The notes: generated from the letters alone by a model not told the origin. A DNA stretch of 30,594 nucleotides from Bacteroidota bacterium (GCA_030628785.1 DAOVQI010000001.1:1-30594), one strand, 5' to 3'; positions 445 through 17,574 are shown, numbered from the stretch's first letter. Made by a program: numbers and translations.

Positions 445-2535
445 ATGAAAAATAACGTACTCTTTACCATCTTATCTTTTTGTATTCTTGCTATTCTGTT
501 TTCCTGCACTAACGAGAGAGTTACACTGGAAACATTATTAGAAGAAATGACTGACCGTGAAGCGCTTACGTATTTTCCGGAACCTGCTTACACCATAAAA
601 CAGTTCAGTAGCTATGACAGGAAGAGCGTATCTCCGGAAAAAAACGGCTGGTTTGCTAACAGGGACTATACGCATTTTATCCGGGAAGATACCATTGAAG
701 GCAGACACGAATTTGTACTATTTGACAGTGAAGGTCCTGGCGGGATAGTCCGGTTTTGGATGACCTTTGCAGGCCAGGGAGCTTCGGAAGGTACATTACG
801 AATATATCTTGACAACGGGGAAGAACCGGTAATTGCAGATAGTGTGCTAAAAATCCTTAGCGGTGGTTTGCTGGCCGGAGAACCGCTAAGCACTTCAGTA
901 TCTCCCGAAACCGAATACCAGCGGCGGGGCCATAATCTTTATCTGCCATTACCCTATGCTGAACATTGCAAGATCACCTACGAATGTGATGCCATTGAAA
1001 TTGACGGTGATAAGCGCAAACCAAGTATTTACTATAACATCAACTATCGAACCTATGCCAAAGGTACGAAAGTGGAGAGCTTTTCAACCAAAGTACTTAC
1101 AGGAGCCAAACCTTTGGTAGAAAAAACGTGTAAAACATTGCTCAGACCTGATTTCACCGGTAAAAAGGCGGAAAGTCATTCCGGATCTCAAATCCTTAAA
1201 CCCGGGGATCATCTTACATTTGAGCTGAAAGACAAAAACAAAGCCATTCGCAAAATATCGGTAAAACTCGCTGCTGAAAACTTGAACCAGGCATTGCGAT
1301 CAACAGTGTTTTCCTCTTCGTTTGACGGCAACCAAACAATCTGGGTGCCAGTGGGTGAATTTTTCGGAACAGGGTACCAACTCTTTCCTTCAAAAACCTG
1401 GTACAGCGAAGTATCAGTCGATGGTCAGATGACAGCATGGTGGATAATGCCCTACCAGGACAACTGCACGATAAAACTAACCAATTATGGAGAACAGGAG
1501 GTTGAAGTTAATGCAGAAATTCACACTACTGACTACAACTGGAAAAAATCGAGCATGTATTTCGGAGTCGCATGGCACGAGCACCACCAGATCCACAGTG
1601 CAAAACCCGACCCGACCCAGGATGGCGACTGGCATTTTGATGTTAATTACGTAAACCTTGAAGGACAAGGTCTTTATGTTGGTGATGCGCTTACTGTTTT
1701 TAATACTGCCGATGCCTGGTGGGGAGAAGGCGACGAAAAGATCTTCGTTGATGGTGAAGCATTTCCTTCATGTATCGGGACCGGTACTGAAGATTACTAC
1801 GGATATGCCTGGTGCCGTCCTGAAAAATTCTCACATCCATTTATTGCCCAACCTACCGGTGCAGGCAATTTCCATCCGGGAATGACAGTTAACATGCGCT
1901 ACAGGGCTCTGGACGCTATCCCCTTTACTACCAGAATTCAGTCAGATATCGAACTTTGGCATTGGGCACAAACCATTATGAACTACGCCATGACATCATA
2001 CTGGTATGCAAAACCGTCTTTTACCTACAATATAAAACCCGGCGTGGAAACAGTAAAAATACCGGTAGCTCTCAAACGTTCCGATATATACCCGCCGGTA
2101 GTGAATGAACAAGGAATTCTGGAAGGTGAAATGCTCGAGGTAGTAAAGATCGACGGTGGTACAGCCGGGGTTCAATCCGGCAAACAATTTGGCTGGAGCA
2201 AAAATGCCCAGTTATGGTGGCGGCATGCAGAAAAAGGTAATCAGTTAGAAATGCGATTTTATATCAAGGAAGAAGGAACATATGCAACTACCGGGAAGCT
2301 CACTAAAGCAGCAGATTATGGGATTGTTCGATTTGAATTAAACGGGAAACCTGCCGGAAGATCTTTCAATGGTTACTTGCCCGACGATGTAAAAACCTAT
2401 CCGTTTAATTTCGGGACCCACAAATTAAATGCCGGTGAAAACATTCTAACGGTACTAATTGTGAGTAAAGACCCAAAAGCTAAGCCCGGCAATATGGCAG
2501 GGATTGATTTTATGAGGTTTGAGAAGATTAAATAA
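445..2535 (+). CDS. DUF2961 / GH172-family glycoside hydrolase lipoprotein with C-terminal beta-sandwich (CBM-like) domain
   Basis: Lipobox LFSC; GPGGIVRFWMT; WWGEGDEKIFVDGE and GTGTEDYYG motifs typical of DUF2961/GH172. Confidence 0.85.
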   Translation: MKNNVLFTILSFCILAILFSCTNERVTLETLLEEMTDREALTYFPEPAYTIKQFSSYDRKSVSPEKNGWFANRDYTHFIREDTIEGRHEFVLFDSEGPGGIVRFWMTFAGQGASEGTLRIYLDNGEEPVIADSVLKILSGGLLAGEPLSTSVSPETEYQRRGHNLYLPLPYAEHCKITYECDAIEIDGDKRKPSIYYNINYRTYAKGTKVESFSTKVLTGAKPLVEKTCKTLLRPDFTGKKAESHSGSQILKPGDHLTFELKDKNKAIRKISVKLAAENLNQALRSTVFSSSFDGNQTIWVPVGEFFGTGYQLFPSKTWYSEVSVDGQMTAWWIMPYQDNCTIKLTNYGEQEVEVNAEIHTTDYNWKKSSMYFGVAWHEHHQIHSAKPDPTQDGDWHFDVNYVNLEGQGLYVGDALTVFNTADAWWGEGDEKIFVDGEAFPSCIGTGTEDYYGYAWCRPEKFSHPFIAQPTGAGNFHPGMTVNMRYRALDAIPFTTRIQSDIELWHWAQTIMNYAMTSYWYAKPSFTYNIKPGVETVKIPVALKRSDIYPPVVNEQGILEGEMLEVVKIDGGTAGVQSGKQFGWSKNAQLWWRHAEKGNQLEMRFYIKEEGTYATTGKLTKAADYGIVRFELNGKPAGRSFNGYLPDDVKTYPFNFGTHKLNAGENILTVLIVSKDPKAKPGNMAGIDFMRFEKIK

Positions 2536-2564
2536 GGTGTAAAAGAATTTTTAAGGCACTTTGT

Positions 2565-2600
2565 TATTACCATGCTGTCGGTTGTTTCCAACCGACAGTT
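2565..2600. repeat. 36-bp direct repeat, copy 1 (contains 10-bp stem hairpin)
   Basis: tattaccatgCTGTCGGTTG-tttc-CAACCGACAGtt, identical to 17454-17489. Confidence 0.95.
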
Positions 2601-2601
2601 C

Positions 2602-3065
2602 TCATTCAATTTTGGTTATAGTTTTATTCGTTTGTTTCAGTAATTCTTCCAATTGCCCATCTTTACTGACATAACCAACTGTTATTTTATCAGCGAGGTC
2701 TGTCATTAATTGATTTCTTGTTTGTGCTGTTTTTCGGTAACTCTTTTTACTGATTTGTCAAACGGTGTAATGATTAAAAGTCTGTTTTGTTCTATTGCTG
2801 TTTTAAATTCCGGTTCTAAATTTTCTTTAATTCCTCTTGCCAATACTAAGATGATAGGTTGCTGTCCTTTGAGTAAATAATGTAACACATCTTTTTCTAT
2901 CTGGCTGTGAAATCCGCTAATTATGCAATTTCCTTTTTCCCGTTGCTCAATAGCCCAATCATAACATTTAAGTACTACACTTGCCAGGACTTTTCTGCTG
3001 CAAAGAAATGCTGTTTTCGGTAGATTTAAAATTTCGATATTTCCTTTGTACTCTTTTATTTTCAT
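2602..3065 (-). pseudogene. Short DprA/SMF-like (SLOG Rossmann-fold) protein with a single 1-nt frameshift
   Basis: ORF 2706-3065 (KTAFLCSRK...IISGFHSQIEKDVL...LIITPF) continues in another frame as EKTAQTRNQLMTDLADKITVGYVSKDGQLEELLKQTNKTITKIE* (TGA at 2602-2604) if the T5 run at 2730-2734 were T6; restored length 154 aa. Confidence 0.8.
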
Positions 3066-3087
3066 ACTTTACACAAAATTATTGAAG

Positions 3088-3240
3088 TATCCGGTTATAT
3101 CCGGTTATCCAACTTGGTCCAGTGATTTAATAATTAATTGTATATCATGTGATTTGGTTCGTGATTAGAATAATATCCGGTAATTTCCGGTAAAAAGTAA
3201 ATAACGAGAATAGAATTGAATATCTGATAATTTCCGGTGA
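3088..3240. repeat. Five TCCGGT-core repeats, two pairs with 10-bp period, upstream of the DprA-like gene
   Basis: tatccggtta x2 (3088-3107), taatatccgg-taatttccgg-taa (3171-3193), taatttccggtga (3228-3240). Confidence 0.7.
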
Positions 3241-3250
3241 CAATCTTTAT

Positions 3251-3292
3251 TTTTATGCTTCTAGCAAGAACAAGAATTAAAGGCTGTTTTTT
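3251..3292 (-). pseudogene. Fossil fragment of a second DprA-like gene
   Basis: Translates KKQPLILVLARSIK versus GQQPIILVLARGIK in the neighbouring gene (2826-2867); no ATG start in that frame. Confidence 0.65.
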
Positions 3293-3300
3293 GTAAATTA

Positions 3301-3333
3301 TTTGCTTTTGTCATTCTAATTGTATTACCTTTG
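3301..3333 (+). promoter_or_regulatory. Bacteroidota sigma-A type promoter (-33 TTTG / -7 TAnnTTTG)
   Basis: TTTG at 3301-3304, 21-nt spacer, TACCTTTG at 3326-3333. Confidence 0.65.
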
Positions 3334-3339
3334 CTGTAC

Positions 3340-3401
3340 AAACATCACCAAAGATAGCATCTTTGGTCCGACGCCTTACGAAGTAGGGCGTTTCTTTTTT
3401 T
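3340..3401 (+). ncRNA. Candidate ~60-nt two-hairpin small RNA ending in an intrinsic terminator
   Basis: Follows the promoter. Hairpin ACCAAAGAT-agc-ATCTTTGGT (3347-3367), hairpin ACGCCTTAC-gaa-GTAGGGCGT (3371-3391), then TTCTTTTTTT. No ORF. Confidence 0.55.
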
Positions 3402-3406
3402 ATAGC

Positions 3407-3525
3407 TTACTCATCATACTCGTTATCTTCCTTCCCAAACAACTCTTTCCCCTCCTGTACTTTATATTGTAATTAATGATAAAATAAAGTTCCTCTTCCG
3501 AAAAGCCATAATGTTCCGCAAAAAC
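3407..3525 (-). pseudogene. Relic 3' tail of a second Eco57I-like methyltransferase allele
   Basis: Reads VFAEHYGFSEEELYFIINYNIKYR-(1-nt deletion)-GKELFGKEDNEYDE*, matching VLAEHYGFTQEELDFIINYDIKYRMGKELEKGEMNE* of the intact gene; 3441-3525 aligns to 5261-5346 at 70/86 by hand. Confidence 0.9.
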
Positions 3526-3529
3526 ATAT

Positions 3530-4057
3530 TTATCTCTTTTTCCTTTCCATTTTTAATTCTCTTTCAACAAAAAAATCGTAAATATCAATACACCTGACAC
3601 CATGCTTTGCGGAAACTCCCGGAATTTTATTCGGTTTGTTTTTGTTCTCATTCGTGATCAGAACAAAATTGTTTACTTTACAATATGCAATCAGGTAAGG
3701 ATCGGCTTCTTCCTGACCTTCGGCAAGTTTTTTGGCATTGAAGAAGCCTGTGTCATACTCTTCATTGATAATCGGAATAGCTGCATTTATACATTCTTCA
3801 TCTGAAGGAAATACGAAGGTCTTCTTCCACTTTTTCACCCATTTCTTAAGAAAATCTTCCTTGCCTTCATAGTTGTTTATTTCTTCTTCTACAAAATCAA
3901 TGGTTCTGAAACGACCCTGTTTGATAAGTTCTTCTATTTCTTCCCAAATAGCGGAAAATACAGGATTGTCATACTTAAAAGTTGATTCAAGCATAATCAA
4001 TCCGCTTGTATCAATCACATAAACAACATTGTCTTTATCGTCAAAGCCTAATTTCAT
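3530..4057 (-). CDS. DUF4411-family PIN-domain protein (putative RNase toxin)
   Basis: PIN-type acidic motifs YVIDTSGLI, EADPYLIA, LITNE and KIPGVSAKHGVRCIDI; 3 nt downstream of the ImmA-like gene. Confidence 0.85.
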   Translation of the reverse strand: MKLGFDDKDNVVYVIDTSGLIMLESTFKYDNPVFSAIWEEIEELIKQGRFRTIDFVEEEINNYEGKEDFLKKWVKKWKKTFVFPSDEECINAAIPIINEEYDTGFFNAKKLAEGQEEADPYLIAYCKVNNFVLITNENKNKPNKIPGVSAKHGVRCIDIYDFFVERELKMERKKR

Positions 4058-4060
4058 GAA

Positions 4061-5212
4061 TTAAGCATTAAGCAATTGACGGGTTTTGGGGATGTATGAA
4101 AGCTTAACCCCCAAAAAGTCCGACAAATCTTTAAGGTCAATCTTGTTTTGGTCAAATGCCTTGAATGCAAGGCTGATATATGTGCGACCCCGTTCTTTTA
4201 TGGTTTCCTTTGGAATATTTCTTCCTTCCGGAGTTTTGCTAATACCAAAAGTTGGCTTGCTCCATGCATCGTGTTTTTCTTTGTAGAAAGCAGATGTCGT
4301 AAGGTTATTTTCCAGTAAACACCTTAAAATAGCTAAAGGCCCGACATGAAAATGATTGGCTAATTCAACCAAATCCTTCTTTGCCCAGTTTTTCTCATTT
4401 TTTGAAACATATTGACGGACAAGATTCATTTTTAACAACTGAGCTGATGGAACTAATAATTCGGCTGCAAAAGCATTACACCATTTTTCAATTTGCTTTG
4501 CATTCGGATCAAAGTTTATATCGCAAATACCTCCTTCATTAAGCAGTATATGGCCTAATTCATGAAATAATGTAAATATTTTGGCAGTTGGCTGTTCCCC
4601 GCCTCGTTTTATGGAAATAACCGGCATTTGCTCATCTATTATCGAGAACCCACGAAGATTATCTTGTGTCAGGCTCAACTGAAAAACTGCTACGCCTAAA
4701 GATTCGACATGTTCAATGTAGGCATCCAGGGCATCATTTACATTTTCAAGTTGCCTGAATTCATCAAGTTCCCATTCAATACGAAGTTTATGGGAAATAG
4801 CAACAGGCGATTCTTCAATGTTTGCTCTGAATTGAAAAGGCTGAATGGGAAGACCTGCTTCTTCTTTCAATTCAATTAATGATGAAACCAATGCCCGGGC
4901 TTTACGAACAGCCATAATGGTTTTCTCATGGAAAATATCAAGTTTAGCAGAATCAATGGTACGTCTGTCTTTGGGCAACGGTTTCTCTTTGGGAGGCTTT
5001 TGTAATAAAAGTGTTGCAACAGTACGATTATAGGTTTTAGCCATAGACTTAAGTTCGTCCATTGAAGGATATTTTTCACCGTTTTCCAATTGTTCTAAAC
5101 GGGAAATGCTTATCAGGGTGCTTTCTGCCGCTTTGGGTTTGCTAAGCACAAGGGAATCTCTTGCCCATTTAAGGACCTCAGGATTTGTCTTAATATGAAT
5201 TACTTCTGCCAT
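4061..5212 (-). CDS. XRE HTH + ImmA/IrrE-family Zn metallopeptidase (putative antitoxin/regulator)
   Basis: N-terminal HTH (LKWARDSLVLSK...LEQLENGEKYPS), FTLFHELGH (HExxH), EKWCNAFAAELLVP. Confidence 0.9.
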   Translation of the reverse strand: MAEVIHIKTNPEVLKWARDSLVLSKPKAAESTLISISRLEQLENGEKYPSMDELKSMAKTYNRTVATLLLQKPPKEKPLPKDRRTIDSAKLDIFHEKTIMAVRKARALVSSLIELKEEAGLPIQPFQFRANIEESPVAISHKLRIEWELDEFRQLENVNDALDAYIEHVESLGVAVFQLSLTQDNLRGFSIIDEQMPVISIKRGGEQPTAKIFTLFHELGHILLNEGGICDINFDPNAKQIEKWCNAFAAELLVPSAQLLKMNLVRQYVSKNEKNWAKKDLVELANHFHVGPLAILRCLLENNLTTSAFYKEKHDAWSKPTFGISKTPEGRNIPKETIKERGRTYISLAFKAFDQNKIDLKDLSDFLGVKLSYIPKTRQLLNA

Positions 5213-5235
5213 TGTAATACAAAATTAATTTAATT

Positions 5236-8200
5236 TTACTCATTCATCTCCCCTTTCTCCAACTCCTTACCCATCCTGTACTTGATATCGTAGTTAATAA
5301 TAAAATCCAGCTCCTCCTGCGTAAAACCATAATGCTCCGCTAAAACCTTGTCGATTTCGTCTATGATAGATTTGGATTTTTTCTTTCGGTAAACATATGA
5401 TTCTACAATGCCTCTGGTAGAACTATGTGTCACTAAAGATTTTTTATTGTAATCAAGATCATTTTCTAGCTTGTCTGAAAGGTCAATTAGTTTTATATTA
5501 TCTCTGTAATTACTTTTAAAAGAGAAAATCATATAATCCTTAATATTAAACATATCAAAATTTACTGCATAATACCACCAGAATAAGTTTGAATTCAACG
5601 CACTCATAAAAAATTTTGATTTGAATTCTGATTGAAAACTAGCAGATTTGTTACTAAGTGATTCAGAATTAAATCCTTCATTCAAAAATATTAACCAATA
5701 TCTTGCTCCTGCTGTACGATAATGTATCTCATTCGAATAAACTTTTCTTGGTGATAAATATTCTTTAATCTTCTTCTGTTCAATGAATTTATTATAAATA
5801 GATTTTTCTATACTACTTGTTGATAAACGCCAAATTGTTGAATTGAAAATCCCAGTTGAATAATAAATAGAATTAAATAAACTATCTCTTTGTTCAGCAT
5901 TCCAACGTAAAACTTGGGTTGTGAATATTTTTTTTGAATTACCCCTTGTTATGAAAATCGTTAGTCTTTGATCTACACCCTCAAATAATTTTGATGGTCT
6001 TATTTCAAAATGGCTATAATACTTTGTTCCTTTCTCTTCCAGAAGACATCTCAAATCATACATATTATTGTTCGATACTGAAGTCAATGGTATAATCATT
6101 CCAACATTATTATCATCTCTTATCAGTTGAAAGGATCTTTCAATTATGTAAGCATAGAGATTACTACATTTTTCAGTTTTGTAATTAATTATTTTATAGG
6201 TATTTCTTATCTTCGTATATTCTACATATGGCGGATTCCCAATGATCACATCAAAACCGCCTTTATCGTGAATAATTTCATAAAACTCTGCAAACCAGTG
6301 GAAGGGTTGGTGGCTGGTGAGCCAGTCGCTGTATTTAATTTTCTCAGCTTGTTTATGTAAAAGCAGGTTAAGTTCGTGATTTAGTTCTTTTAGGCGTTTG
6401 TTGAGTTCATCTTTGGCTTCTTTAAAATCCTTGTAATCTTCGCCACTACCCAATTGTATTTCCTTATAACGTTGGAAGGTGCGGGCAACAATATCGCATT
6501 TTTCTTCAATTTCCTGTTTTACAATTGCACCCATCATGTCCTCAACAAGGCTTTTCTCCAATTCCTTTTCTGTTGCAAAACCAACCAGCGTATTTCCTGC
6601 CCGGATGTTAAAATCAATGTCGGGTAAAGGTTCCAGTCCCAAGTTGGGTTTATGATAATCGACATCAACCGTGGCAACCAGTTTCAGGAACAAACGGAGC
6701 TTTGCAATCTCAACGGCTTCTCTCATGATGTCAACCCCGTAAAGATTGTTAAGGATGATCTTTTTATAAATGTAGTATTTATCGCCGGGATGTTTGTCCA
6801 TTTCCAACAGCACTTCACGGAAATTGCTATGCTTTTTTAGCTGTCCTTTTTCATCGGCTTCTTTTACAAAATCGTGCATGCGGGTTATACAGGTTTCATA
6901 AAGCGGTTCAAGGATATTGAGAGCAGCGAATAAAAATGCACCCGAACCACAGGTAGGGTCCAGAATGGTTAACTTGCTGATGGCCTTGTAAAATGCATTG
7001 ATAAAATCGGAACCCTCATATTGTTCTACTGCGTCCTGAGCAAACTGTCGGATATTCAGGTTGTAAGTAATAAAATCATTTATCTCCCTGATCTTATCGT
7101 TTTCAAGTTTCTTTTTCACTTCGAAATAACGGTTGCGGCGTTCCACCACCTCTCGCCAGATTTCGGTGTAAAGGGCAATATCCTCCGGAGCGTATTTGTT
7201 CCAGGCTTTGCGTCTCTCCAGCAGGTCAGGTTTTCCGGTATCCAACCCAATCACTATTTCTTCGGGATAATCTTTGTATTTTTTTTCACCCGTTTCAGGA
7301 TCCAGATCATATATGCCATGTTGTACAGCAGGATAGATATACCTATCGGGGTCTTCACGTAGCATTTGCCATAAGCTGCTGTCTTCTCGGAACGCATTGG
7401 CACACTCCTTCTTAACCTGGTCGAACAGAAAAGGGATCACCGTGTTTTTACTAATGTATTCCGTAATATCCTCTTTGGTGTAATAAGCGCCCATGGCTGC
7501 CCGGTCGTTGATGTATTTCTCAAAAATATATCCGATCACATCGGGATTGATGTCTTTACCGGTAGCCGTGATGGTTGTATCAAGGTGCCAGTTATATTCA
7601 TCGAAAAAATCAAATATTTTTCTAAATGCGTCGTCTTTGATCTGAATGTCGTAATCCTTCTCCAGTTCATGAATATCAAACAAGCCACCATTCAGGTAAG
7701 GAATTATGCCAAGGTCAGTTTCTAATTGTTCATTTATTTCAGGACTGCCCAATCCTTTATGGAATAAAACCAACAGGAAATTCTTGTAGAAGGAGTAGAA
7801 TTTATCTTTTCCTTTTTTCTTCTGCGTTTCGTAGAGTTTGTCGCTAAGGTAATTTAGGTTCTTATCTAAGAACCCTTTCCGCTGGATGAAGTATATAAAC
7901 ATCAACCGGTTCAGCATCAATGATGCATACCAGTCTTTGTTCACTTTATTTTCTATTCCTTCGATAAAACTGAGAAAAATTGCATGCTCTTTTTTAAACT
8001 GGTCATAAAAAACCTTTGTAACTTTTTCAGCATTCTGATTGAATTGTTCCGTGACCCTTAATTTTACATCGGCAATACCAATATTTTCCTCTTCGTCAAT
8101 ACTGAAAAAAAGACCTGCCAATTTCTGATAGAGGTATTCGGGTTCCTGGTTGGTATAATACTCAACTTCGCGTATAACAATCGGTTTGTTTGGCTCACGG

Positions 8201-8514
8201 ATAGCGAGCTGCCAGACCTGCTTATTAACTTTTTCACCGGTAAATATGATCAGGTGTTCATAGAATTTTTTAGCAATATTGCGTTCAATTTTTTTGCGCT
8301 CTGTTTTATCTGGAAATCCTCCGTTTTTACCTGTACAATTGAGAATAATAAAGTCTCTTTTTTCGGCAACGGCATTCAATTCATAGTGATTATCTCCAGC
8401 TATAACCGGTATTGTTAACTCAGCGAAATCCCATCCCAACTCGTTAAAAAGTTCACTGAATTTTCTTGAAGTAACAAGTTCTTTAAATTTCTTTTTAGAA
8501 ATGGGCTGATCCAT
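5236..8514 (-). CDS. Eco57I-like (type IIG/IIL-class) N6-adenine DNA methyltransferase with C-terminal target-recognition region
   Basis: GAYYTKEDITEYI, motif I ILDPTCGSGAFL (~6931-6966), NNLYGVDI, motif IV FDVIIGNPPY (~6226-6255), YLNGGLF. Confidence 0.92.
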   Translation of the reverse strand: MDQPISKKKFKELVTSRKFSELFNELGWDFAELTIPVIAGDNHYELNAVAEKRDFIILNCTGKNGGFPDKTERKKIERNIAKKFYEHLIIFTGEKVNKQVWQLAIREPNKPIVIREVEYYTNQEPEYLYQKLAGLFFSIDEEENIGIADVKLRVTEQFNQNAEKVTKVFYDQFKKEHAIFLSFIEGIENKVNKDWYASLMLNRLMFIYFIQRKGFLDKNLNYLSDKLYETQKKKGKDKFYSFYKNFLLVLFHKGLGSPEINEQLETDLGIIPYLNGGLFDIHELEKDYDIQIKDDAFRKIFDFFDEYNWHLDTTITATGKDINPDVIGYIFEKYINDRAAMGAYYTKEDITEYISKNTVIPFLFDQVKKECANAFREDSSLWQMLREDPDRYIYPAVQHGIYDLDPETGEKKYKDYPEEIVIGLDTGKPDLLERRKAWNKYAPEDIALYTEIWREVVERRNRYFEVKKKLENDKIREINDFITYNLNIRQFAQDAVEQYEGSDFINAFYKAISKLTILDPTCGSGAFLFAALNILEPLYETCITRMHDFVKEADEKGQLKKHSNFREVLLEMDKHPGDKYYIYKKIILNNLYGVDIMREAVEIAKLRLFLKLVATVDVDYHKPNLGLEPLPDIDFNIRAGNTLVGFATEKELEKSLVEDMMGAIVKQEIEEKCDIVARTFQRYKEIQLGSGEDYKDFKEAKDELNKRLKELNHELNLLLHKQAEKIKYSDWLTSHQPFHWFAEFYEIIHDKGGFDVIIGNPPYVEYTKIRNTYKIINYKTEKCSNLYAYIIERSFQLIRDDNNVGMIIPLTSVSNNNMYDLRCLLEEKGTKYYSHFEIRPSKLFEGVDQRLTIFITRGNSKKIFTTQVLRWNAEQRDSLFNSIYYSTGIFNSTIWRLSTSSIEKSIYNKFIEQKKIKEYLSPRKVYSNEIHYRTAGARYWLIFLNEGFNSESLSNKSASFQSEFKSKFFMSALNSNLFWWYYAVNFDMFNIKDYMIFSFKSNYRDNIKLIDLSDKLENDLDYNKKSLVTHSSTRGIVESYVYRKKKSKSIIDEIDKVLAEHYGFTQEELDFIINYDIKYRMGKELEKGEMNE

Positions 8515-8518
8515 AAGC

Positions 8519-11500
8519 TTATGCTTTTAATCCCAGTGAACAAATAATTTTTGGCGGGCGGTTTTCCAATTCTTCTTTATCGATAATACATAACCGGCCC
8601 TCTTCTCTTAAAGCCACAACCAGTTCGGCAAGTCGCTGATCATCAATTCCTGTTTTCAACCAACGATTCAGTGAATCACGGGCATATTCCCTGAGAGGAT
8701 ACTTGTAAATTTCGTCAATAGCACGCTTTAAGTTCTCATTTGCAAATAATGTATTTTGATATTCCCGGTAGTAACTGTTCAGGCGCATATAAACCCTGTA
8801 CCTTGCACCGGTCTTTTTCCCGAGCTGTCCACCAATATCTGATTCGGTATCTTTAATGTATTCCACACCAGTTGCGACCAGTTTATGATGTTCTGGTATT
8901 TTATGCACAGCTATTGTTTCAGGTTTACAGGCTGCAGTTTTGAGTATTCTTAACTGGGATTGTGTAATTATATTATTACTGGTATCAATCCATGTAAGTA
9001 TATCGTTATCATCAGCGGTTTTGGTATAGACGATGACCCCTTCCGGATTTGTATCTGAAACTTCAGCCTTCCTGGTACTGTATATTACATCAGGATATTC
9101 CGGAATTATCTTTTGTAGTTTTGGGTAATCATCAATGGCATTTTTCCAAATCTGGTAAGCATATGAAGCTAAGTCCACCTCTCCGTCATCTTCATCGTCC
9201 AGAATACCTGCTTTTTCATTGTACAAATCTGAGATATTAACAGGATCTCCTTCAAAGAAAACCTCATCGGATCCCACTACTTCGGCATTTTCTCTTATTC
9301 TCCTTGTTAAACGCCTTCTCAGTCCGATAATCCTTTCAATTCCATCTTCAGGTAAGAAAGAGTAACAAAGAATTTGCTCAGATTTCTGTCCGATACGGTC
9401 CACCCTGCCAGTCCGTTGGATCAACCTGATAATTGCCCAGGGAAGGTCATAATTAACTACGATATACCCGTCTTGTAAATTTTGGCCTTCGCTAAGTACA
9501 TCGGTTGTAATTAAAACCCTGATTTCACCCTTCTCTCCCAACTCTTCCTTTTTGACTTCGTTACTTATGGGACTAAAGCGATAGGCAAGATCTGTCGGAT
9601 CTTCGCTATCACCCGTTGCGCATTCAATTCTTTTAATCCCTCTTTTCTTTAACTGTTCAAATAAATAATGGGCTGTATCCGCGAATTGGGTAAATACGAT
9701 AATTTTCTCTTTTGCGTATTTTACAGAACATAAATCATATAAGGCATTTAATTGCCTGTCTTCATATGCATTCCAATCCTTACCTAACTTTAGGATTTCA
9801 ATCAGTTTCCGTGCATCTTCAATGAGCAGGTTCTTTACTTGTTTTAAAAACAATCCCGAACTAATCCACTGATATTTCTTTCTTTCATTTGCCTGAGAGA
9901 TGATTTGATAAATTTCTTCAGCATTTTTTAAGTACGTTTCTTCATCTAAAACCAGTTTTAAAAAGTTTGTTTTATTTTGGCTATCAGGATCTTCATCTTC
10001 CAAAAATTCATCCAACATATTTGCCTCCTGCGAGCCAATAGAGAAAGGTAAATTATTTTCTATGGCATAGACGAAAATAAAGTTCCTTAAAATATGCCTT
10101 GATATTGACAATAGGAAGGAATATCCGCTGCTTTCGAGCCTTTTGAATAGTCCTGTCCTTGAGAATCCTATTAATCTTTTACCGGCTCTTGCCAAATTCT
10201 CAATAACAACCTTTTCATTAGGTGTTGGAACAAGTAAAGATTTCTCATCAAGGTAATTACCTAAACCATATCTGACAAGTTCCAGTTTGTTAATGATATT
10301 TACAACTTCAGTCGAGTATAATTTTGCATATTGATCAGCAGGATTATTCGGATCAAATTCATATTCCATTTTTCTTGGTATCCTATCCGGGAAATATGAG
10401 CGATCTCCGTTACTAAAAAGTAAATATTTTCTATCTTTTAAAGAATCATACCTGGCATAATTACCCTTAATAAAACTTCGGGTACGTCTGACTAGGTACA
10501 ATCTCATCAATTCCCTCCAATCATCCGTATAATCACTTTTTTCAAAAGCCGGCAAGCTTCTTATTCCATGTTGATGTCTGGCTGCAAATTCCACCTTTCC
10601 ACCTATTTCAGTAATGTAATTTTCGGGGCTGATCCCCAAATCTTTATCTTCAGGAATAAATAGCCTTAATGGGCTTGAAAGGTCCAGGTAATCTTTATTG
10701 TATGGTGTCGCTGTGAGTAAAACGACCATGCTGTCATTTTCCTGTATATATTCATTAATCGCCCGATATCTTTTGCCTTCACGATTTCTTAAATTATGGC
10801 TTTCATCGATAATAACTAACCTGTATCGCCTTAGTGAAGGTAATTTCGTTTGCACCTGTGATATTGGTAGAATTTGCGATACCCTTTTTAATTCATATTT
10901 ATCCGCATATTTCTTCCACATTTTTACAATGTTAACCGGACATAAAATTAGTGTTTCCATGCCCAGATCTTCTTCAAACATTTTTGCGATGGTGATAGCT
11001 ATAATTGTTTTTCCCAATCCGACAACATCACCAATCATAACACCGTTACGCTTATTCAGGTGATGGGCAGCGATTAAAACTGCTTTTTCCTGGAATTCTA
11101 AAAGTTCTTTTTGGAAAATCTTAGGAATTTTAAATTCCTGTAATCCTGCTCTGGCTTCTATCGACAAGTGATAAGCTATTTTTAAATAAATATGATACGG
11201 TGGAATAAGTTTTTCTCCGGCCCAACTTTCCTCGATAATTTCAATTAATTCCTTGGTAATATCAATACACCACCTGTCCTCCCATCTATCTTCAAACCAT
11301 CTGGCTAGTTTTTCAGCAGCATCCCGATCTAGCACATCAATATTCAATTCTCCTTGCTTGACGAGGCCTGCAAGAGTCAAATTACTGCTCCCCAGATATC
11401 CAATTATTGGATTTATCTTATCTTCCCGAAATGCAAGATATAGTTTAGCATGTAACGCATGCCTGAGGAATAGCTTTACAACAACCTTATTATCTTTAAG

Positions 11501-11860
11501 CTGTTTTCCAAGTTTTCTCAATCCTAGTTCGTCTTCTTCAGTTGGAGTACCAATAGTTAGTTGATTTCTGAATTCAACAGCAAGTTGTTTTTTTATCTTG
11601 CTTGCAGCAGCATTATCTATTGGCTTATCAATATTTATAAAATATTCTGAAATAACATCACGAGGTAATTTTTGCATCCCCACCAAAAGCCGACATCTGT
11701 TGTTCTCCTCACCCGAAAATTTGTCAATATTATCCGCAACCTGTTTCCATCCTCTAAGGTTAAAATATCCAACACAAAAATCAGTTCTCTGCGATACCTC
11801 AAGGGATTCATTTAATCCCTTAGTCAAATGGTTTACTATATTGTCATAAATTTTAGGCAT
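8519..11860 (-). CDS. PLD-family nuclease fused to SNF2-like SF2 helicase
   Basis: N-terminal VGYFNLRGW, LHAKLYLA and GSSNLT (single PLD HxK...GSxN motif); Walker A GDVVGLGKT; IIDESHN; LLTATP; TDVLSEGQNLQ; YDLPWAIIRLIQRTGRVDRIG. Confidence 0.92.
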   Translation of the reverse strand: MPKIYDNIVNHLTKGLNESLEVSQRTDFCVGYFNLRGWKQVADNIDKFSGEENNRCRLLVGMQKLPRDVISEYFINIDKPIDNAAASKIKKQLAVEFRNQLTIGTPTEEDELGLRKLGKQLKDNKVVVKLFLRHALHAKLYLAFREDKINPIIGYLGSSNLTLAGLVKQGELNIDVLDRDAAEKLARWFEDRWEDRWCIDITKELIEIIEESWAGEKLIPPYHIYLKIAYHLSIEARAGLQEFKIPKIFQKELLEFQEKAVLIAAHHLNKRNGVMIGDVVGLGKTIIAITIAKMFEEDLGMETLILCPVNIVKMWKKYADKYELKRVSQILPISQVQTKLPSLRRYRLVIIDESHNLRNREGKRYRAINEYIQENDSMVVLLTATPYNKDYLDLSSPLRLFIPEDKDLGISPENYITEIGGKVEFAARHQHGIRSLPAFEKSDYTDDWRELMRLYLVRRTRSFIKGNYARYDSLKDRKYLLFSNGDRSYFPDRIPRKMEYEFDPNNPADQYAKLYSTEVVNIINKLELVRYGLGNYLDEKSLLVPTPNEKVVIENLARAGKRLIGFSRTGLFKRLESSGYSFLLSISRHILRNFIFVYAIENNLPFSIGSQEANMLDEFLEDEDPDSQNKTNFLKLVLDEETYLKNAEEIYQIISQANERKKYQWISSGLFLKQVKNLLIEDARKLIEILKLGKDWNAYEDRQLNALYDLCSVKYAKEKIIVFTQFADTAHYLFEQLKKRGIKRIECATGDSEDPTDLAYRFSPISNEVKKEELGEKGEIRVLITTDVLSEGQNLQDGYIVVNYDLPWAIIRLIQRTGRVDRIGQKSEQILCYSFLPEDGIERIIGLRRRLTRRIRENAEVVGSDEVFFEGDPVNISDLYNEKAGILDDEDDGEVDLASYAYQIWKNAIDDYPKLQKIIPEYPDVIYSTRKAEVSDTNPEGVIVYTKTADDNDILTWIDTSNNIITQSQLRILKTAACKPETIAVHKIPEHHKLVATGVEYIKDTESDIGGQLGKKTGARYRVYMRLNSYYREYQNTLFANENLKRAIDEIYKYPLREYARDSLNRWLKTGIDDQRLAELVVALREEGRLCIIDKEELENRPPKIICSLGLKA

Positions 11861-11876
11861 ATAATCAGTTTTAGTC

Positions 11877-11884
11877 CAAATTTA
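11877..11884 (-). promoter_or_regulatory. Possible -7 promoter box for the helicase-MTase operon
   Basis: TAAATTTG on the minus strand 17 nt upstream of the ATG; no clear -33 box. Confidence 0.45.
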
Positions 11885-12021
11885 GAAAAACCATTTGTAA
11901 AATTACACTCTTTTGCTAGTTTATGTCTGCTGTTTAGCATTGCGGGACTTGCAAATGTGTGTAATGTACGTAGGCATTAGAATTTTGAAATTTTTGTGCA
12001 GTATAATAAAAGATTAAAATA

Positions 12022-12039
12022 TCCCGATAGCTATCGGGA
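12022..12039. repeat. Perfect 18-bp palindrome (REP-like)
   Basis: TCCCGATAG-CTATCGGGA. Confidence 0.8.
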
Positions 12040-12147
12040 GGCCGGCAATGAGTGCCTGTGAGTCAGTCCACAAGTCAAGTTTTCAATATCAAGTTTAATA
12101 TTTCATTTAATTGTCATTTGTCATGTCTTTGTCTTTTTTCCGCTTGT

Positions 12148-12285
12148 GTATAACCGGTTTGGCAGTATGATTAGCTCCGCATCTGTCAGGCCACTGAATA
12201 TTTTATCGGTTTGACGTATTTGTTTTTTATTTGTTTTAATGCTTTTCTAATCAAAACGCGGCGTTAACTATACTGCCTGTTGAGT
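12148..12285 (-). other. attC-like recombination site (138 bp), apparently intact
   Basis: On the minus strand: begins within 3 nt of the stop of the 539-aa gene with ACTCAAC (RYYYAAC) and ends GTTATAC. Internal imperfect inverted repeat GGCAGTATAGTTAACGCCGC / GCGGAGCTAATCATACTGCC with asymmetric spacers to the AAC and GTT triplets. Confidence 0.7.
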
Positions 12286-12287
12286 AG

Positions 12288-13907
12288 TTAATAATCGGTC
12301 AAACTTAAACCTATGTTGAAAATATGAAGTTTTAAATTGTTCCCGGCTTTTTCCCATTTTTCTTTTTCATTTTCTACTATCTTATATGGTAATATGAATC
12401 CATATGGGTACAGTACTTTGGTTTGTCTAATGCACCCTTCCCTTTTTAATCCTTTGGATTCATCAAAATAGCTTACTCTGAAAAGAAAGTTCCCAACTTG
12501 TGCGCAAACCATGAAGAAATCATTTGTCATTTCTTCAGCAATTTTCCTGTCTATTAATTTTAATCGCAAAAGACTTCCCATAGCAAAAGCTCCTTTATTC
12601 ACAATGAAATTCAAATCATATGTTTCACAGTCAGCAATTTCTACCAAAAAGCCATAAGGTATTTTTCCTTCTTTTATCTCTATACAGGTATTATCAGGCA
12701 ATATGGGTGTAAGATTGGATTTTATTGAAAGTAAAATTGCCTTAACAGTAATCCATAAAGCTATCTGTTTAGCATTATGTTTGTCTAGATTTAATTCACT
12801 TAGGTTCGTTTTTAATTTTTTTGGTTCAAAGATTAGAATGGCCTTAACATTCTCTTCAAGTTGAGACATCCAGGTTGTATTACAACTTATACAAACATGA
12901 TGAGTAGTATAACCATATGAGCTTTCAGTTCCTTTGGAAAGGCCTGATTGTAACGTTGTCAGCAAGTCATCTTCGGGTAATCTTGCATGTAATATGTTAC
13001 TGAATGTTTTTTCTTCAAAATAGTTCCTCATCCATTTGGCAAAAATGTGTTCCCCACTTATATTATCAGAACCACAAAAAATGCATTTGTTCTTCTCAAA
13101 TTTCGGTATAATCGCTATCTTTTCATTTTTGCCTAATTTGGATAAAATCTCATTAATTCTTGCAAATGGTTTTATATAGTGTTTTGGTATCTCCAATTCC
13201 ATTTCTTTTTCTGAATAATTAACCAAAGTTTCATGAAAAACTAATCCTTCTTTATTGCCTGATTTAGAGCTAATAATTTTTAAATTAGTTTTTCCGTATG
13301 GGTTTAGTATATCTCTTATTTCAGATAAATAACTATACCATTCACTTTTGACTTTAATGGAAACAGTTTTTATATCATAGAGCCATGTGTAATACTTATT
13401 ATTGTTTATTGCAAAACAGTAATAACAATCTATCCAATTGATTCCGTAATGAGGATTTTCCTTATAAAACAAGAATGATTCACAAGGGATGTGTTTAGAT
13501 CCCAATATTTCCATAACTTGATTTGGCGATTCAAGTTTTCCTTGTATTAACCTCTTTGCTTCTTTTATGAAGTATCCTTTTTTGTCCGAGATTTTAATTC
13601 TACAGCCGAAATTGTTTGCAAAAATTTCTAAAGTATCGAGTAAGTCCACCTCATTTGATATAAATTTGCGTGGTATCCAATAAGCAAAACCAAACAGGAT
13701 TTCTCCATTTACTACTTGTGTGCATAGTAGTAGATGGGATAATTTATTATCACGAAATTTTTTCAGATAAAGTGAGATATCGTTCTTGAGAAACTGAGTT
13801 TTATCTGGGCTTTCAAAGGTGGAAACAACTATGTTTTCTTCAACTTTTAACTGTTTCTTAAAGATATTATTAAAATTATCTCCTAGAATTATATTATTCA
13901 TCAGCAA
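12288..13907 (-). CDS. Two-domain protein: unknown N-terminal half + C-terminal HNH/His-Me finger nuclease-like domain
   Basis: CIFCGSDNISGEHIFAKW and VCISCNTTWMSQLE (CxxC...EH / CxxCN). The real start may be the ATG at 13901. Confidence 0.7.
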   Translation of the reverse strand: MLMNNIILGDNFNNIFKKQLKVEENIVVSTFESPDKTQFLKNDISLYLKKFRDNKLSHLLLCTQVVNGEILFGFAYWIPRKFISNEVDLLDTLEIFANNFGCRIKISDKKGYFIKEAKRLIQGKLESPNQVMEILGSKHIPCESFLFYKENPHYGINWIDCYYCFAINNNKYYTWLYDIKTVSIKVKSEWYSYLSEIRDILNPYGKTNLKIISSKSGNKEGLVFHETLVNYSEKEMELEIPKHYIKPFARINEILSKLGKNEKIAIIPKFEKNKCIFCGSDNISGEHIFAKWMRNYFEEKTFSNILHARLPEDDLLTTLQSGLSKGTESSYGYTTHHVCISCNTTWMSQLEENVKAILIFEPKKLKTNLSELNLDKHNAKQIALWITVKAILLSIKSNLTPILPDNTCIEIKEGKIPYGFLVEIADCETYDLNFIVNKGAFAMGSLLRLKLIDRKIAEEMTNDFFMVCAQVGNFLFRVSYFDESKGLKREGCIRQTKVLYPYGFILPYKIVENEKEKWEKAGNNLKLHIFNIGLSLTDY

Positions 13908-13915
13908 GTAATTCT

Positions 13916-13965
13916 GACCAACGTTTTTATAACGTATTGTATATTAGGACTATATAAAGTTGCAG
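13916..13965 (-). other. Collapsed/degenerate attC-like site
   Basis: Plus strand: gaccAAC-gttt..., then ttatAAC-gtattg-TATAT-taggact-ATATA-aa-GTTgcag. Same AAC + 6 nt + stem...stem + GTT layout as 12148-12285 but only ~40 bp. Confidence 0.4.
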
Positions 13966-14004
13966 TTTTTACCCTATTTATCCTAATTATTATTTTGTTC
14001 TAAT

Positions 14005-14535
14005 TTATCTTAAATCAGGTATTTTATACTCTTTTTTCAGGTATCCAATAAATTCTAATGTATTCTTGAAAGATTCACCAAAAAATGAGAACATTTCCAT
14101 ATCTGTCAAACCGTCAGTATATGGTAAAGTGTCTTGTATTGAAAAGTCAGCGTTTTGATTCACAACTGTCTCGGTTATGACGCTACCTAATAAGGACCCA
14201 CTTTGAGGATTTGCTACCCACTTGTTGTAGGCATAATGATAATTTGCATATCGTTTACCTATCTCTTGATAAAACAATTGAATTTCATTTTCTTATAGTC
14301 CAATGTCGTCACATAGTTTCTGATGTAACATATTCTTATATTCTTTTGAAGGGATAGTTAATGAAATTACCCATAGAGAGAAAATTTTTGTCTCAAGGCT
14401 TAATAGCTGTTCGTCTCCAGAGAAATCAGTCTTTTCTTTAATATAATCCTGAAGTCCCTTGTCTATCTTAATTCTTACATCTAAAAGGGCGTTCAGTAAT
14501 TCATCAAGGGTAAGTTTTCTCCTAAATAGTTTCAT
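14005..14535 (-). pseudogene. Hypothetical 176-codon gene interrupted by one in-frame TAA
   Basis: ORFs 14293-14535 and 14005-14277 are in the same frame: ...DDIGL*ENEIQLFYQEIGKRY... Confidence 0.8.
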
Positions 14536-14548
14536 TTTCTTTTAATTT

Positions 14549-14568
14549 TGTACAATGCATTGTACGCA
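14549..14568 (-). other. attC-like site reduced to its two fused ends
   Basis: TGTACAA-tgca-TTGTACGCA between a stop codon (14573) and the next start (14535); resembles ...TACAA(C) and (G)TTGTAC... ends with the interior deleted. Confidence 0.45.
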
Positions 14569-14572
14569 GTTA

Positions 14573-15313
14573 TTATTTAATCTTTCCTGATAATTTACTT
14601 TCAAAAATTTCCGCTGTCGGATTATATTTTGAAATTAATGCTTCAACTATTTGTCTATCACCTAGTACACATTTTGGACCAATTACTATCTTCATTTCTT
14701 TTAAAGACTCTATATTCAAATCTACATCATAAAACTCTATACTAGGCGGAATCCTTTTATCGATAAATTTCTCATAAGCTACTGGGAAATTTTCTATAGA
14801 CACATTAGGGTCAAATGGATAAATTTCCATTTTGTACCTTACCTCATCTTCTATTTTCCAGATAGTTCTTTTTCTTAGACCTAAAGCTGATGTTTTTAAA
14901 CCAATATCTGTTCTGATTTTAGGAAAAAGTCTATCTTCATCATCAGTATACTCTACTAAAACTGGTTTATTTTCAGCTGGCAATATGAAGATTCTTTTTT
15001 GATCATTCAAAGAATCATTTTTAGTTATAATAAAATCTGAATAATCACCAATCTTATAACTATTAAAGACAGGTGTAGGAAGCTCAATTCTTATTCCCCT
15101 CATTTTATCTGTATACATATTCCATAAAGCAAAATTTTCCTCTGAATTTTTTGTCCAACAAGAAACAAACATATACATTGCCATTGCCCCAAAATCTTTG
15201 GAAATACCTTCATTTGGATCATTAACAAGGTCAAGCCGATTAAACCTAATTTTTTTTGAATCAAGAATTAAAGCTAATTTATTTATAGAAGAATAATGAA
15301 ATAATTCTGTCAT
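14573..15313 (-). CDS. DUF2971-domain protein
   Basis: LFHYSS...IRFNRLDLVNDPNEG, FVSCWT...NFALWNMYT, WKIEDEVRY, IVIGPK pattern typical of DUF2971. Confidence 0.75.
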   Translation of the reverse strand: MTELFHYSSINKLALILDSKKIRFNRLDLVNDPNEGISKDFGAMAMYMFVSCWTKNSEENFALWNMYTDKMRGIRIELPTPVFNSYKIGDYSDFIITKNDSLNDQKRIFILPAENKPVLVEYTDDEDRLFPKIRTDIGLKTSALGLRKRTIWKIEDEVRYKMEIYPFDPNVSIENFPVAYEKFIDKRIPPSIEFYDVDLNIESLKEMKIVIGPKCVLGDRQIVEALISKYNPTAEIFESKLSGKIK

Positions 15314-15387
15314 AGCTATATTATAATTTGCTTTTGCACTGTTTAATAGTCAATGAAATAGTTCAGTCTGTCTTTTTGGGAAATTGC

Positions 15388-15413
15388 GTATAACTCATTT
15401 ATAAAATTATGCC
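15388..15413 (-). other. Right half of an attC-like site (left half missing)
   Basis: Minus strand GGCATAATTTTAT-aaatga-GTTATAC: same GTTATAC core as 12148, 75 nt upstream of the DUF2971 ATG. No complementary arm found upstream. Confidence 0.5.
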
Positions 15414-15517
15414 TTTTCAGTAAATACTACTTAATATTGTGTTAATATACATATTTCCGAAAAATTATTCAATATTAAAAACCGGATAAAAAAAATAAAA
15501 AAATAGGGACAGCATCT

Positions 15518-15848
15518 GCAGCAGCCATCTCTCTTGTTGATGAGCAAATAGGAAGGGTAATAAAAGCTTTGAAAGAGACAGGACAATATGAAAAATACGT
15601 TAATTTTGTATACAGCAGACCACGGAGACATGATTGATGGGCGATCAAAACATGTGGAGAAAATGCTTAAACTACTTGAAGGGAAAATACCGTGGCGGAA
15701 AATACTGGATATGGAACATAGCAAGATATATGAAAAAGAAAATGCCTGGGTGGCTCTGACAGATGGAAGGTACAAATATGTATATTTTACATTAACCGGG
15801 ACCAAGCAGTTATTTAACTTAAAAACAGGAGGAAATTATTATGATTAA
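15518..15848 (+). pseudogene. Sulfatase relic (5'-truncated, frameshifted, internally deleted)
   Basis: AAISLVDEQIGRVIKALKETGQYE, +1 shift in the A run at 15591-15595, then NTLILYTADHGDM (sulfatase DHG motif) and LTDGRYKYVY...QLFNL. Confidence 0.8.
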
Positions 15849-17376: not shown

Positions 17377-17453
17377 TTCCGATTCAAATATTTCAAATTA
17401 GATAATTAGGTTAGAAAAATAGGGATAGCTTTCTAATTTTATCAGGACAACAC

Positions 17454-17489
17454 TATTACCATGCTGTCGGTTGTTTCCAACCGACAGTT
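17454..17489. repeat. 36-bp direct repeat, copy 2, followed by a second hairpin
   Basis: Identical to 2565-2600; then TCAGGTG-aaaa-CACCTGA at 17497-17514. Confidence 0.95.
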
Positions 17490-17574
17490 TTCAGTGTCAG
17501 GTGAAAACACCTGATATCATTAAAACAGATAAAAAAATATGTACATTTATCCTTATTTAATAAATTATTGGAAC

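Follow-up and report, generated by a model that had tools for sequence, protein, structure and literature searches.

Gene content of the locus

The stretch of DNA analyzed here (GCA_030628785.1 DAOVQI010000001.1:1-30594, from a Bacteroidota bacterium; the window, 30,594 nt in all) carries a block of genes that a first-pass annotation, made from the sequence alone, had read as a candidate multi-layer defense operon consisting of a two-gene restriction core, a toxin-antitoxin (TA) layer and a DprA-like accessory. The list of open reading frames (ORFs) agrees with the layout proposed there: five co-oriented genes, all on the minus strand, begin with a PLD-SNF2 helicase (HEL) and an Eco57I-type methylase (MT), continue with an HTH-ImmA gene and a DUF4411 gene, and end with the DprA-like gene, the first four being separated by 4, 23 and 3 nt (Table 1). 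The fourth gene and the DprA-like gene lie 464 nt apart, and this spacer contains a relic of the MT C-terminus as well as hairpins.

All ORFs of at least 80 aa between 2.4 and 15.9 kb of the window were scanned against Pfam, PADLOC and NCBIfam. These family scans upheld every domain call made beforehand, and all motifs that had been named were found (HAKLY/GSSN, GLGKT, DESH, DPTCGSG, NPPY and HELGH).

Table 1. Features of the five-gene block, with positions counted in the window
Feature	Position	Strand	Details
HEL (PLD-SNF2 helicase)	8519-11860	-	1113 aa; ORF list
MT (Eco57I-type methylase)	5236-8514	-	1092 aa; ORF list
HTH (XRE) + ImmA/IrrE M78 peptidase	4061-5212	-	383 aa; ORF list
DUF4411 PIN-like protein	3530-4057	-	175 aa; ORF list
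MT-tail relic	3445-3525	-	frameshifted, non-coding
Two adjacent hairpins with T/A runs	3347-3392	both	terminator scan and direct sequence reading
DprA-like gene	2706-3065; 2602-3065 if the frameshift is read through	-	119-aa ORF; ~153 aa if read through

HEL fuses a PLD domain (PLDc_2/NgoFVII) to SNF2-rel_dom and Helicase_C domains. Its N-terminal PLD/HKD region has a single HxK motif (HAKLY, aa 137-141, with GSSN at aa 157-160), its SNF2-type SF2 ATPase has GLGKT (aa 281), DESH (aa 352) and motif VI (aa 815-825), and its C-terminal region of ~250 aa is conserved and has no assigned domain. We found these catalytic motifs are kept across 75 homologues. Since each chain has a single HKD motif, dimerization is expected for cutting, and cutting via a dimer is known for the single-HKD PLD enzymes BfiI, SauUSI and MtsD of MANTIS. 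The family is large: at least 8000 candidates pass E 1e-20, the best 120 are 64-97% identical over the full length, and matches occur in at least 576 stretches of a species-representative genome collection. In the databases its members are labeled only 'helicase-related protein', 'NgoFVII family' or 'DNA methyltransferase', and a sequence search of the PDB returned only generic helicase lobes for HEL and nothing for MT.

MT is a gamma-class N6-adenine (N6A) methyltransferase of the Eco57I/MmeI type (DPTCGSG at aa 519, NPPY at aa 760), with Eco57I and MmeI_Mtase domains in Pfam and a full-length match to the PADLOC model REase_MTase_IIG (PDLC03628, E 2e-290). As in Type IIG/IIL enzymes, the methylase and the target recognition domain (TRD) are in a single chain with an MmeI-like domain order. 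A moderately conserved, nuclease-like N-terminal domain (aa 1-150) is followed by a helical HsdM_N/MmeI-like domain (aa 165-340); conservation is strong in the catalytic core, the TRD (~aa 800-1040) is hypervariable, and the C-terminal tail (aa 1047-1083) is almost invariant.

A conserved HEL-MT-DprA-like unit

We compared the best 80 HEL loci from species-representative genomes, in which HEL is 56-94% identical to that of the window; they come from Bacteroidota, Ignavibacteriota, Chlorobiota, Planctomycetota, Nitrospirota, Desulfobacterota, Acidobacteriota, Gammaproteobacteria and others. MT directly follows HEL, often overlapping it, in 66 of the 67 loci that have at least 1.5 kb of DNA past HEL. 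Downstream on the same strand, a DprA-like gene is present at 41 of 45 loci with the main type of MT and at one of five with a variant type, while the ImmA/DUF4411 pair lies within the module in none of the 80. Hence, the conserved unit is HEL-MT-DprA-like (the trio) and not the five-gene set, and its recurrence in dozens of loci across phyla puts the arrangement far outside what chance would give.

The restriction core proposed in the first-pass annotation is supported insofar as HEL and MT are coupled, their catalytic motifs are kept and the TRD is hypervariable, and it has to be widened from two genes to three. The DprA-like gene, which had been taken as a loose accessory, is instead a conserved third gene that often overlaps the MT stop codon. 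Recurring linkage to the core was thus borne out in these loci for the DprA-like gene and not for ImmA/DUF4411.

A more distant HEL-MT pair lies on plasmid pSYSX of Synechocystis sp. PCC 6803 (L098, 43.7-51.5 kb), with VapB/VapC (PIN) between the two genes. The pSYSX methylase beside the HEL homologue has 1100 aa, is 46% identical to MT and has the same tail; by length and plasmid it matches slr6050 (M.Ssp6803IV), to which Hagemann et al. tentatively assigned GA(m6A)GGC and whose deletion could not be segregated (PMC6105098). A methylase gene that cannot be deleted fits a live nuclease in the neighboring HEL; this link is ours and not that of Hagemann et al. The pSYSX locus would be a ready experimental system in a model organism.

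The DprA-like third protein

The third protein is below threshold for the Pfam family DNA_processg_A (23.5 bits versus a cut-off of 29.6) and scores 15.5 bits against TIGR00732 (cut-off 191), and it matches PADLOC PsyrA with E 8e-8. We aligned 44 homologues and found the invariant or nearly invariant motifs CSR, YDxA, SGFHSxIEKD, QPII, ARG, GRLLxxxPF and RN. Its AlphaFold2 model has a mean pLDDT of 95.6, and the top PDB matches in Foldseek were DprA (3uqz/4ljk) and ShosA (8zva; TMq 0.77), these best matches having a TMq of ~0.75, with other SLOG folds next. As modeled, the third protein is a DprA Rossmann core of ~150 aa without SAM or winged-helix domains. A bona fide DprA was rejected, since only this core is present and the equivalog and Pfam scores are below their cut-offs.

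The coordinate 2602 given earlier for this gene holds only when translation is continued past a 1-nt frameshift; the uninterrupted ORF ends at 2706. The frameshift lies near 2729, where the window has an A5 run and the closest intact relative (L001, 153 aa) has A6. We found the extra base at 2729, at full depth, in Logan contigs from all of four independent cold-seep metagenome runs (X2-X5). Hence, the gene is intact in the population and the A5 of the window reflects either a mistake in its assembly or an uncommon variant. A real pseudogene or a phase-variable frameshift is unlikely, since the four independent assemblies have the intact A-run.

Insertion of the ImmA/DUF4411 cassette into the MT tail

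The third gene of the block encodes HTH_3 and Peptidase_M78 domains (HELGH at aa 217-221) and matches 15 PADLOC RmrA models (best E 5.9e-20); it looks like the antitoxin or regulator-like partner of a two-gene cassette. The fourth matches Pfam PF14367 (DUF4411) over positions 1-158 of 159 (E 1e-27), and this PIN-like nuclease is the predicted toxin of the cassette. An HTH-DUF955 (ImmA) gene followed by DUF4411.1, the exact architecture found here with its 3-nt gap, is a published predicted TA arrangement (Matelska et al. 2017, PMC5499597). The pair shares with RosmerTA the RmrA feature of its first gene, whereas the DUF4411 protein has no PADLOC match at all, RmrT included.

Directly behind the DUF4411 stop codon, we found an 81-nt relic that is 82% identical at the nucleotide level to the functional MT tail (~5280-5350). 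One other context (L090/L091) has the last 40-50 codons of MT together with ImmA and DUF4411, 78% identical to window positions 5358-3522, and neither MT nor HEL is present at that site. Hence, the tail travels with the cassette.

The ImmA homologues (65-94% identical) are followed by a DUF4411 gene in all nine contexts examined, the window included. Inside a trio, the cassette occupies the same junction in the window, in L089 and in the divergent L093; it also lies directly beside other Eco57I/MmeI-type methylases (L095, L096), while in L092 and L097 housekeeping genes surround it. The cassette is autonomous and mobile, and it adjoins gamma-class methylases more often than expected. The fixed ImmA/DUF4411 layer of the first-pass annotation gives way to a mobile predicted TA module inserted in the MT tail.

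Comparison with two close relatives, L001 (HEL 94% identical) and L089 (HEL ~97%), places the changes within the locus. From HEL through MT to ~6137 the window is 90% identical at the nucleotide level to L001 and 93% to L089; its TRD (6138-5382) has no similarity to that of either relative (15717-16518 in L001, 5810-6594 in L089), and the MT tail is again 86% and 93% identical, respectively. The unrelated TRDs between a conserved MT core and tail in relatives this close point to recent specificity swaps by recombination in the flanks. Behind the tail, L001 has a 106-aa ORF, a relic and NYN, and L089 has ImmA, a truncated DUF4411, a relic, GajA, GajB and a Schlafen/ATPase protein. The relic with its flanking DNA is 89% identical to that of L001 and 94% to that of L089, and the DprA-like gene 76% and 88%. 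Hence, the TRD and the cargo turn over fast, while the MT core, the tail and the DprA-like gene persist and probably act as recombination anchors. In L089, a 13.4-kb Logan contig and the closest relative of all, MT is split into two ORFs and the cargo is stacked from MT to the DprA-like gene.

A terminator scan predicted no terminator between MT and the ImmA gene. The hairpins behind the relic look like terminators in either direction, and the HEL-MT-cassette transcript probably stops there. One of them, at 3370-3392, scores as a plus-strand terminator, so an antisense transcript may exist. The sequence TAATTTTG occurs on the minus strand at 5221-5228 and ~3074-3081, ~8 nt upstream of the ImmA and DprA-like starts; it fits the Bacteroidota TAnnTTTG -7 promoter motif and may mark internal promoters. 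A sigma-70 promoter scan, whose model is not one of Bacteroidota promoters, was at chance level (36 versus 35.7 expected).

A cargo hotspot between MT and the DprA-like gene

We measured the MT/DprA spacing in the 42 loci that have both genes and found overlapping or abutting genes in 11, a gap of 30-700 nt in four and a distance of more than 700 nt, up to 5.4 kb, in 27. In those 27, co-oriented genes fill the junction, and the inserts are unrelated from locus to locus. They include GajA/GajB (Gabija), DarT with a Macro-domain protein, AbiEi/AbiEii, a GmrSD-like enzyme (HEC-06), an NYN nuclease (HEC-09), Fic/Bro-N, RhuM and OLD, along with a deaminase-ATPase fusion (eight loci) with or without DUF4062, an ORC/Cdc6-like NTPase, DUF3800, an M78 peptidase with a 'Beta protein' and Y1 transposase-like genes. 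The cargo of L001 and L062 matches PADLOC HEC-09 and HEC-06. Inserts are also present, though less often, at a second site between HEL and MT: KilA-N (six loci), a YhcG nuclease (three loci) and the VapB/VapC of pSYSX.

Relics of the MT tail also stand behind the cargo in L002, L062 and L064, and their lengths vary among loci. This variation seems easier to reconcile with homology-facilitated illegitimate recombination than with a fixed attachment site. At three places, cargo ORFs finish in frame within the MT-tail relic (L064:6564-7274, L064:7256-8302 and L002:17086-17856); they encode a Y1/REP-associated transposase-like protein, found in two phyla, and a YhcG nuclease, and the latter retains a stop/start overlap with the DprA-like gene.

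Defense genes embedded in helicase/methylase systems are known for Hma (PMC11232893) and BREX (PMC12839542). For the trio, we put forward only as a speculative extension, with low confidence, that the invariant MT tail and the MT/DprA junction together might form a landing pad, at which cassettes would arrive with their own replacement tail, thereby keeping MT whole, and could stack. Such a site would resemble an integron-like capture site with no recombinase in the locus and would give the trio a rotating second immunity layer, and part of this cargo, ImmA/DUF4411 included, may depend for its control on the state of the restriction complex.

Relation to known systems

Literature searches for the trio returned only MANTIS/BR-type 2, Hma, DnmA-YeeBC and ShosTA, and no paper was found that names or tests a combination of PLD-SNF2, methylase and DprA-like proteins. 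Among described systems, the widespread trio comes closest to MANTIS/Gao_RL, Type ISP, DISARM and DnmA-YeeBC.

Like the trio, the Type ISP enzymes LlaGI and LlaBIII combine a nuclease, an SF2 translocase, a gamma-class N6A methylase and a TRD, and asymmetric sites with hemimethylation are expected for both. However, Type ISP enzymes are single polypeptides with an Mrr-type PD-(D/E)xK nuclease, whereas the trio has two ORFs 4 nt apart, a PLD/HKD nuclease and the DprA-like gene.

MANTIS (formerly Gao_RL; the Type-2, DUF499-centred BREX-related MtsABCD) also has an N6A methylase marking asymmetric sites and a single-HKD PLD-SF2 effector, which acts as a dimer forming one PLD site (bioRxiv 10.64898/2026.09.23.753747; PMC12839542), and this dimeric effector can be steered by the N6A methylase complex (bioRxiv 10.64898/2026.09.23.753747). 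Unlike MANTIS, the locus shows neither MtsA (a DUF499 AAA+ protein of the ORC/Cdc6 clade) nor MtsB (DUF3780) in the family scans of 2.4-15.9 kb, the flanking genes encode glycoside hydrolases and similar proteins, the trio has a DprA-like third gene, and MT has its own TRD, so that presumably no loader is needed. HEL shares the PLD-SF2 architecture, but its score against the MANTIS model NF042964 is 116 bits (cut-off 1100), with the helicase C-lobe alone covered.

DISARM class 1 likewise has PLD, SNF2 and N6A methylase functions, and HEL matches DrmD models and MT matches DrmMI models. However, these matches are partial (113 bits against NF038317, cut-off 610, and the catalytic core only for DrmMI), DrmA and DrmB (DUF1998) are absent from the neighboring ORFs, the DrmA match of HEL is the generic C-lobe, and PLD and SNF2 are fused in HEL, whereas DISARM class 1 has them as DrmC and DrmD. 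Of BREX, PglZ and BrxC are absent from the window, and MT scores 75 bits against BREX-1 PglX (cut-off 500). The scans thus agree with the first-pass annotation that DrmA/B and BREX genes are lacking, and the same holds for the MANTIS-specific genes.

The 'Type I-like' DnmA-YeeB-YeeC cluster of B. subtilis, with homologues in Vibrio, resembles the trio in being a conserved three-gene cluster, in which an MmeI/Eco57I-type methylase without an evident nuclease motif stands with two partners, one a helicase and the other a small protein or a nuclease (PMC7261158, PMC9973331); unlike the trio, it has a YeeB helicase and a separate putative nuclease, YeeC (T5orf172), and no DprA-like protein. Hma is another helicase-methylase operon that serves as an insertion hotspot for defense genes (PMC11232893), but its HmaA has a C-terminal NOV_C PD-(D/E)xK nuclease and its partners are HmaB and HmaC, whereas the hotspot of the trio lies at the MT tail/DprA junction and several of its insertions leave a duplicated MT tail. 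The third protein has the DprA Rossmann fold of ShosA and PsyrA, the antitoxins of ShosTA and PsyrTA, of which ShosA binds single-stranded DNA (PMC11961720). Unlike these, it has no PRTase or RecQ-like toxin next to it, is ~150 aa long without a SAM domain, and has HEL and MT as partners in 41 of 45 loci. Assignment of the locus to DISARM, BREX, MANTIS, Type ISP, PsyrTA or ShosTA was rejected, because the defining partners are absent or the scores are far below the cut-offs.

Proposed mechanism and alternatives

Considering the gene content, motifs, trio recurrence, insertion scar, cargo diversity and DprA fold computed here, we conclude that the locus is probably a three-gene ATP-dependent restriction-modification-like system with an inserted TA cassette. 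We infer its activities, namely methylation, restriction, dimeric cutting, the role of the DprA-like protein and the TA function, as follows. MT, with its own TRD, would recognize a short asymmetric site and methylate adenine, thereby marking self DNA. HEL would act as a dimer brought to unmodified sites via MT, translocate using ATP and cut with its metal-independent PLD site. The mini-DprA-like protein would bind DNA, probably single-stranded, and control or assist restriction. HTH-ImmA/DUF4411 would be a self-contained TA-type module that was inserted inside the MT 3' tail along with a replacement tail, the previous tail surviving as the relic. Probably co-transcribed with the core, it would be one of many interchangeable defense or TA modules gathering at the MT/DprA junction, and probably an independent abortive or addiction layer rather than an obligate partner of the core.

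Several points weigh against this proposal. The analogous DnmA-YeeB-YeeC of B. subtilis gave no restriction or phage defense (PMC7261158, PMC9973331), and restriction by the HEL-MT-DprA family is an activity that we infer from sequence. In the more distant loci of Synechocystis pSYSX and Pelobacter pPRO1, HEL-MT is retained without a DprA-like gene, which is therefore not universally required. The N-terminal domain of MT may, judging from its model, itself be a nuclease, which would change the division of labor. Finally, the same ImmA/DUF4411 subfamily adjoins gamma-class methylases in five of nine contexts, including the window, which may reflect some functional tie of the pair to methylase systems or merely a landing preference.

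In one alternative, the locus would be an integrated multi-layer system, in which the intact complex holds ImmA/DUF4411 silent and releases it once HEL or MT has been knocked out by an anti-restriction protein of a phage, leading to abortive infection. The anticodon nuclease PrrC works in this way within EcoprrI, where it is released when restriction is blocked, and the coupling posited in the first-pass annotation, a TA layer firing when the core is inhibited, is hypothesized by analogy with this pair. Co-transcription is suggested by the 23-nt distance from MT to ImmA, over which no terminator is predicted; this TA subfamily recurs at the junction in L089 and L093 and beside other methylases in L095 and L096, the junction cargo is dominated by TA and abortive-infection modules, and methylation-based systems are reported, in a survey of BREX, to contain PIN, HEPN and OLD 'backup effectors' (PMC12839542). 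However, the pair is missing from all 80 representative trio loci, stands alone in L092 and L097 and has only a tail fragment beside it in L090/L091; the insertion scar is typical of later acquisition, and close relatives have other cargo in its place. We therefore regard an integrated layer as unlikely and favor an independent cassette within a three-gene system.

Less probable still, MT could be a self-sufficient Type IIG/IIL enzyme, with HEL acting separately as a SauUSI-like modification-dependent nuclease or as a helper that MT does not direct. The full-length REase_MTase_IIG match and the MmeI/DrdV-like domain order speak for this, as does the weak HSDR_N similarity that Hagemann et al. 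saw in slr6050 (PMC6105098). We modeled MT residues 1-340 with AlphaFold2 (pLDDT 79.8) and found, in a wide search with VIA-align, that residues 165-340 resemble MmeI (5hr4, Z 10.1), HsdM proteins (Z ~9) and PglX (Z 8.2). Residues 6-148 gave weak nuclease-fold matches (Z 5-6), among them the nuclease domain of DrdV (Z 6.2), but such values are within the common background range of the tool, and Foldseek returned no significant PDB match for the N-terminal model, so that domain-level matches come from the VIA-align search only. Within this domain K52, R73 and W101 are invariant and P68, E86 and H87 nearly so, and a canonical PD-(D/E)xK triad cannot be made out among them. Furthermore, pairing with helicase and nuclease genes is known for MmeI-family members in which the nuclease motif is missing (PMC7261158), and the adjacency of HEL and MT in 66 of 67 loci argues for one machine.

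An equally improbable alternative is that, rather than an active defense, we see chiefly a relic of an epigenetic or selfish kind, with MT orphan-like as DnmA is and the TA pair merely stabilizing the island: DnmA-YeeB-YeeC shows neither restriction nor phage protection, the block sits in a 15-kb island missing from a congeneric genome, and L089 has a split MT and a truncated DUF4411, but the catalytic motifs of the window are all intact, purifying conservation across phyla is strong (HEL 56-68% identical, the DprA-like and tail motifs nearly invariant), a TRD that is exchanged this fast is typical where phages exert selection, and slr6050 appears essential.

If the trio is an active restriction system, it would be a common, unrecognized barrier to the entry of phages and plasmids and a likely source of asymmetric m6A motifs in methylomes, such as GAAGGC in Synechocystis, and the DprA fold would have taken on a new function as part of a restriction machine. 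At the cargo hotspot, restriction loci are seen gathering second-line defenses, and the duplicated MT tails are a concrete, testable trace of cassette acquisition. The main value of the locus lies in a very common trio, an unexplained DprA-like subunit and a traceable capture of cargo at the MT tail.

Genomic island and surrounding genes

The congeneric genome G002 joins homologues of window positions 2512-2584 and 17552-18351 across ~500 bp. Hence, positions 2585-17550 of the window form a 15-kb island. Direct repeats of a 40-nt hairpin, 98% identical, bracket the island (2565-2604 and 17454-17493). They were rejected as unique attachment sites, since their metagenome depth is 3-8x that of the flanks and many contigs break there, which indicates multi-copy, REP-like elements.

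Upstream of HEL lie four AT-rich minus-strand genes (12288-15313) of 539, 90, 80 and 246 aa, the last weakly similar to DUF2971/PDC-S31. None of the 80 loci has a homologue of any of them; we therefore dropped them as parts of the system, and they are separate island cargo. At 15588-15848, next to a 511-aa gene without a Pfam match, the island has an 86-aa ORF that we take to be a C-terminal fragment of a sulfatase, which suggests that the island carried or disrupted metabolic genes.

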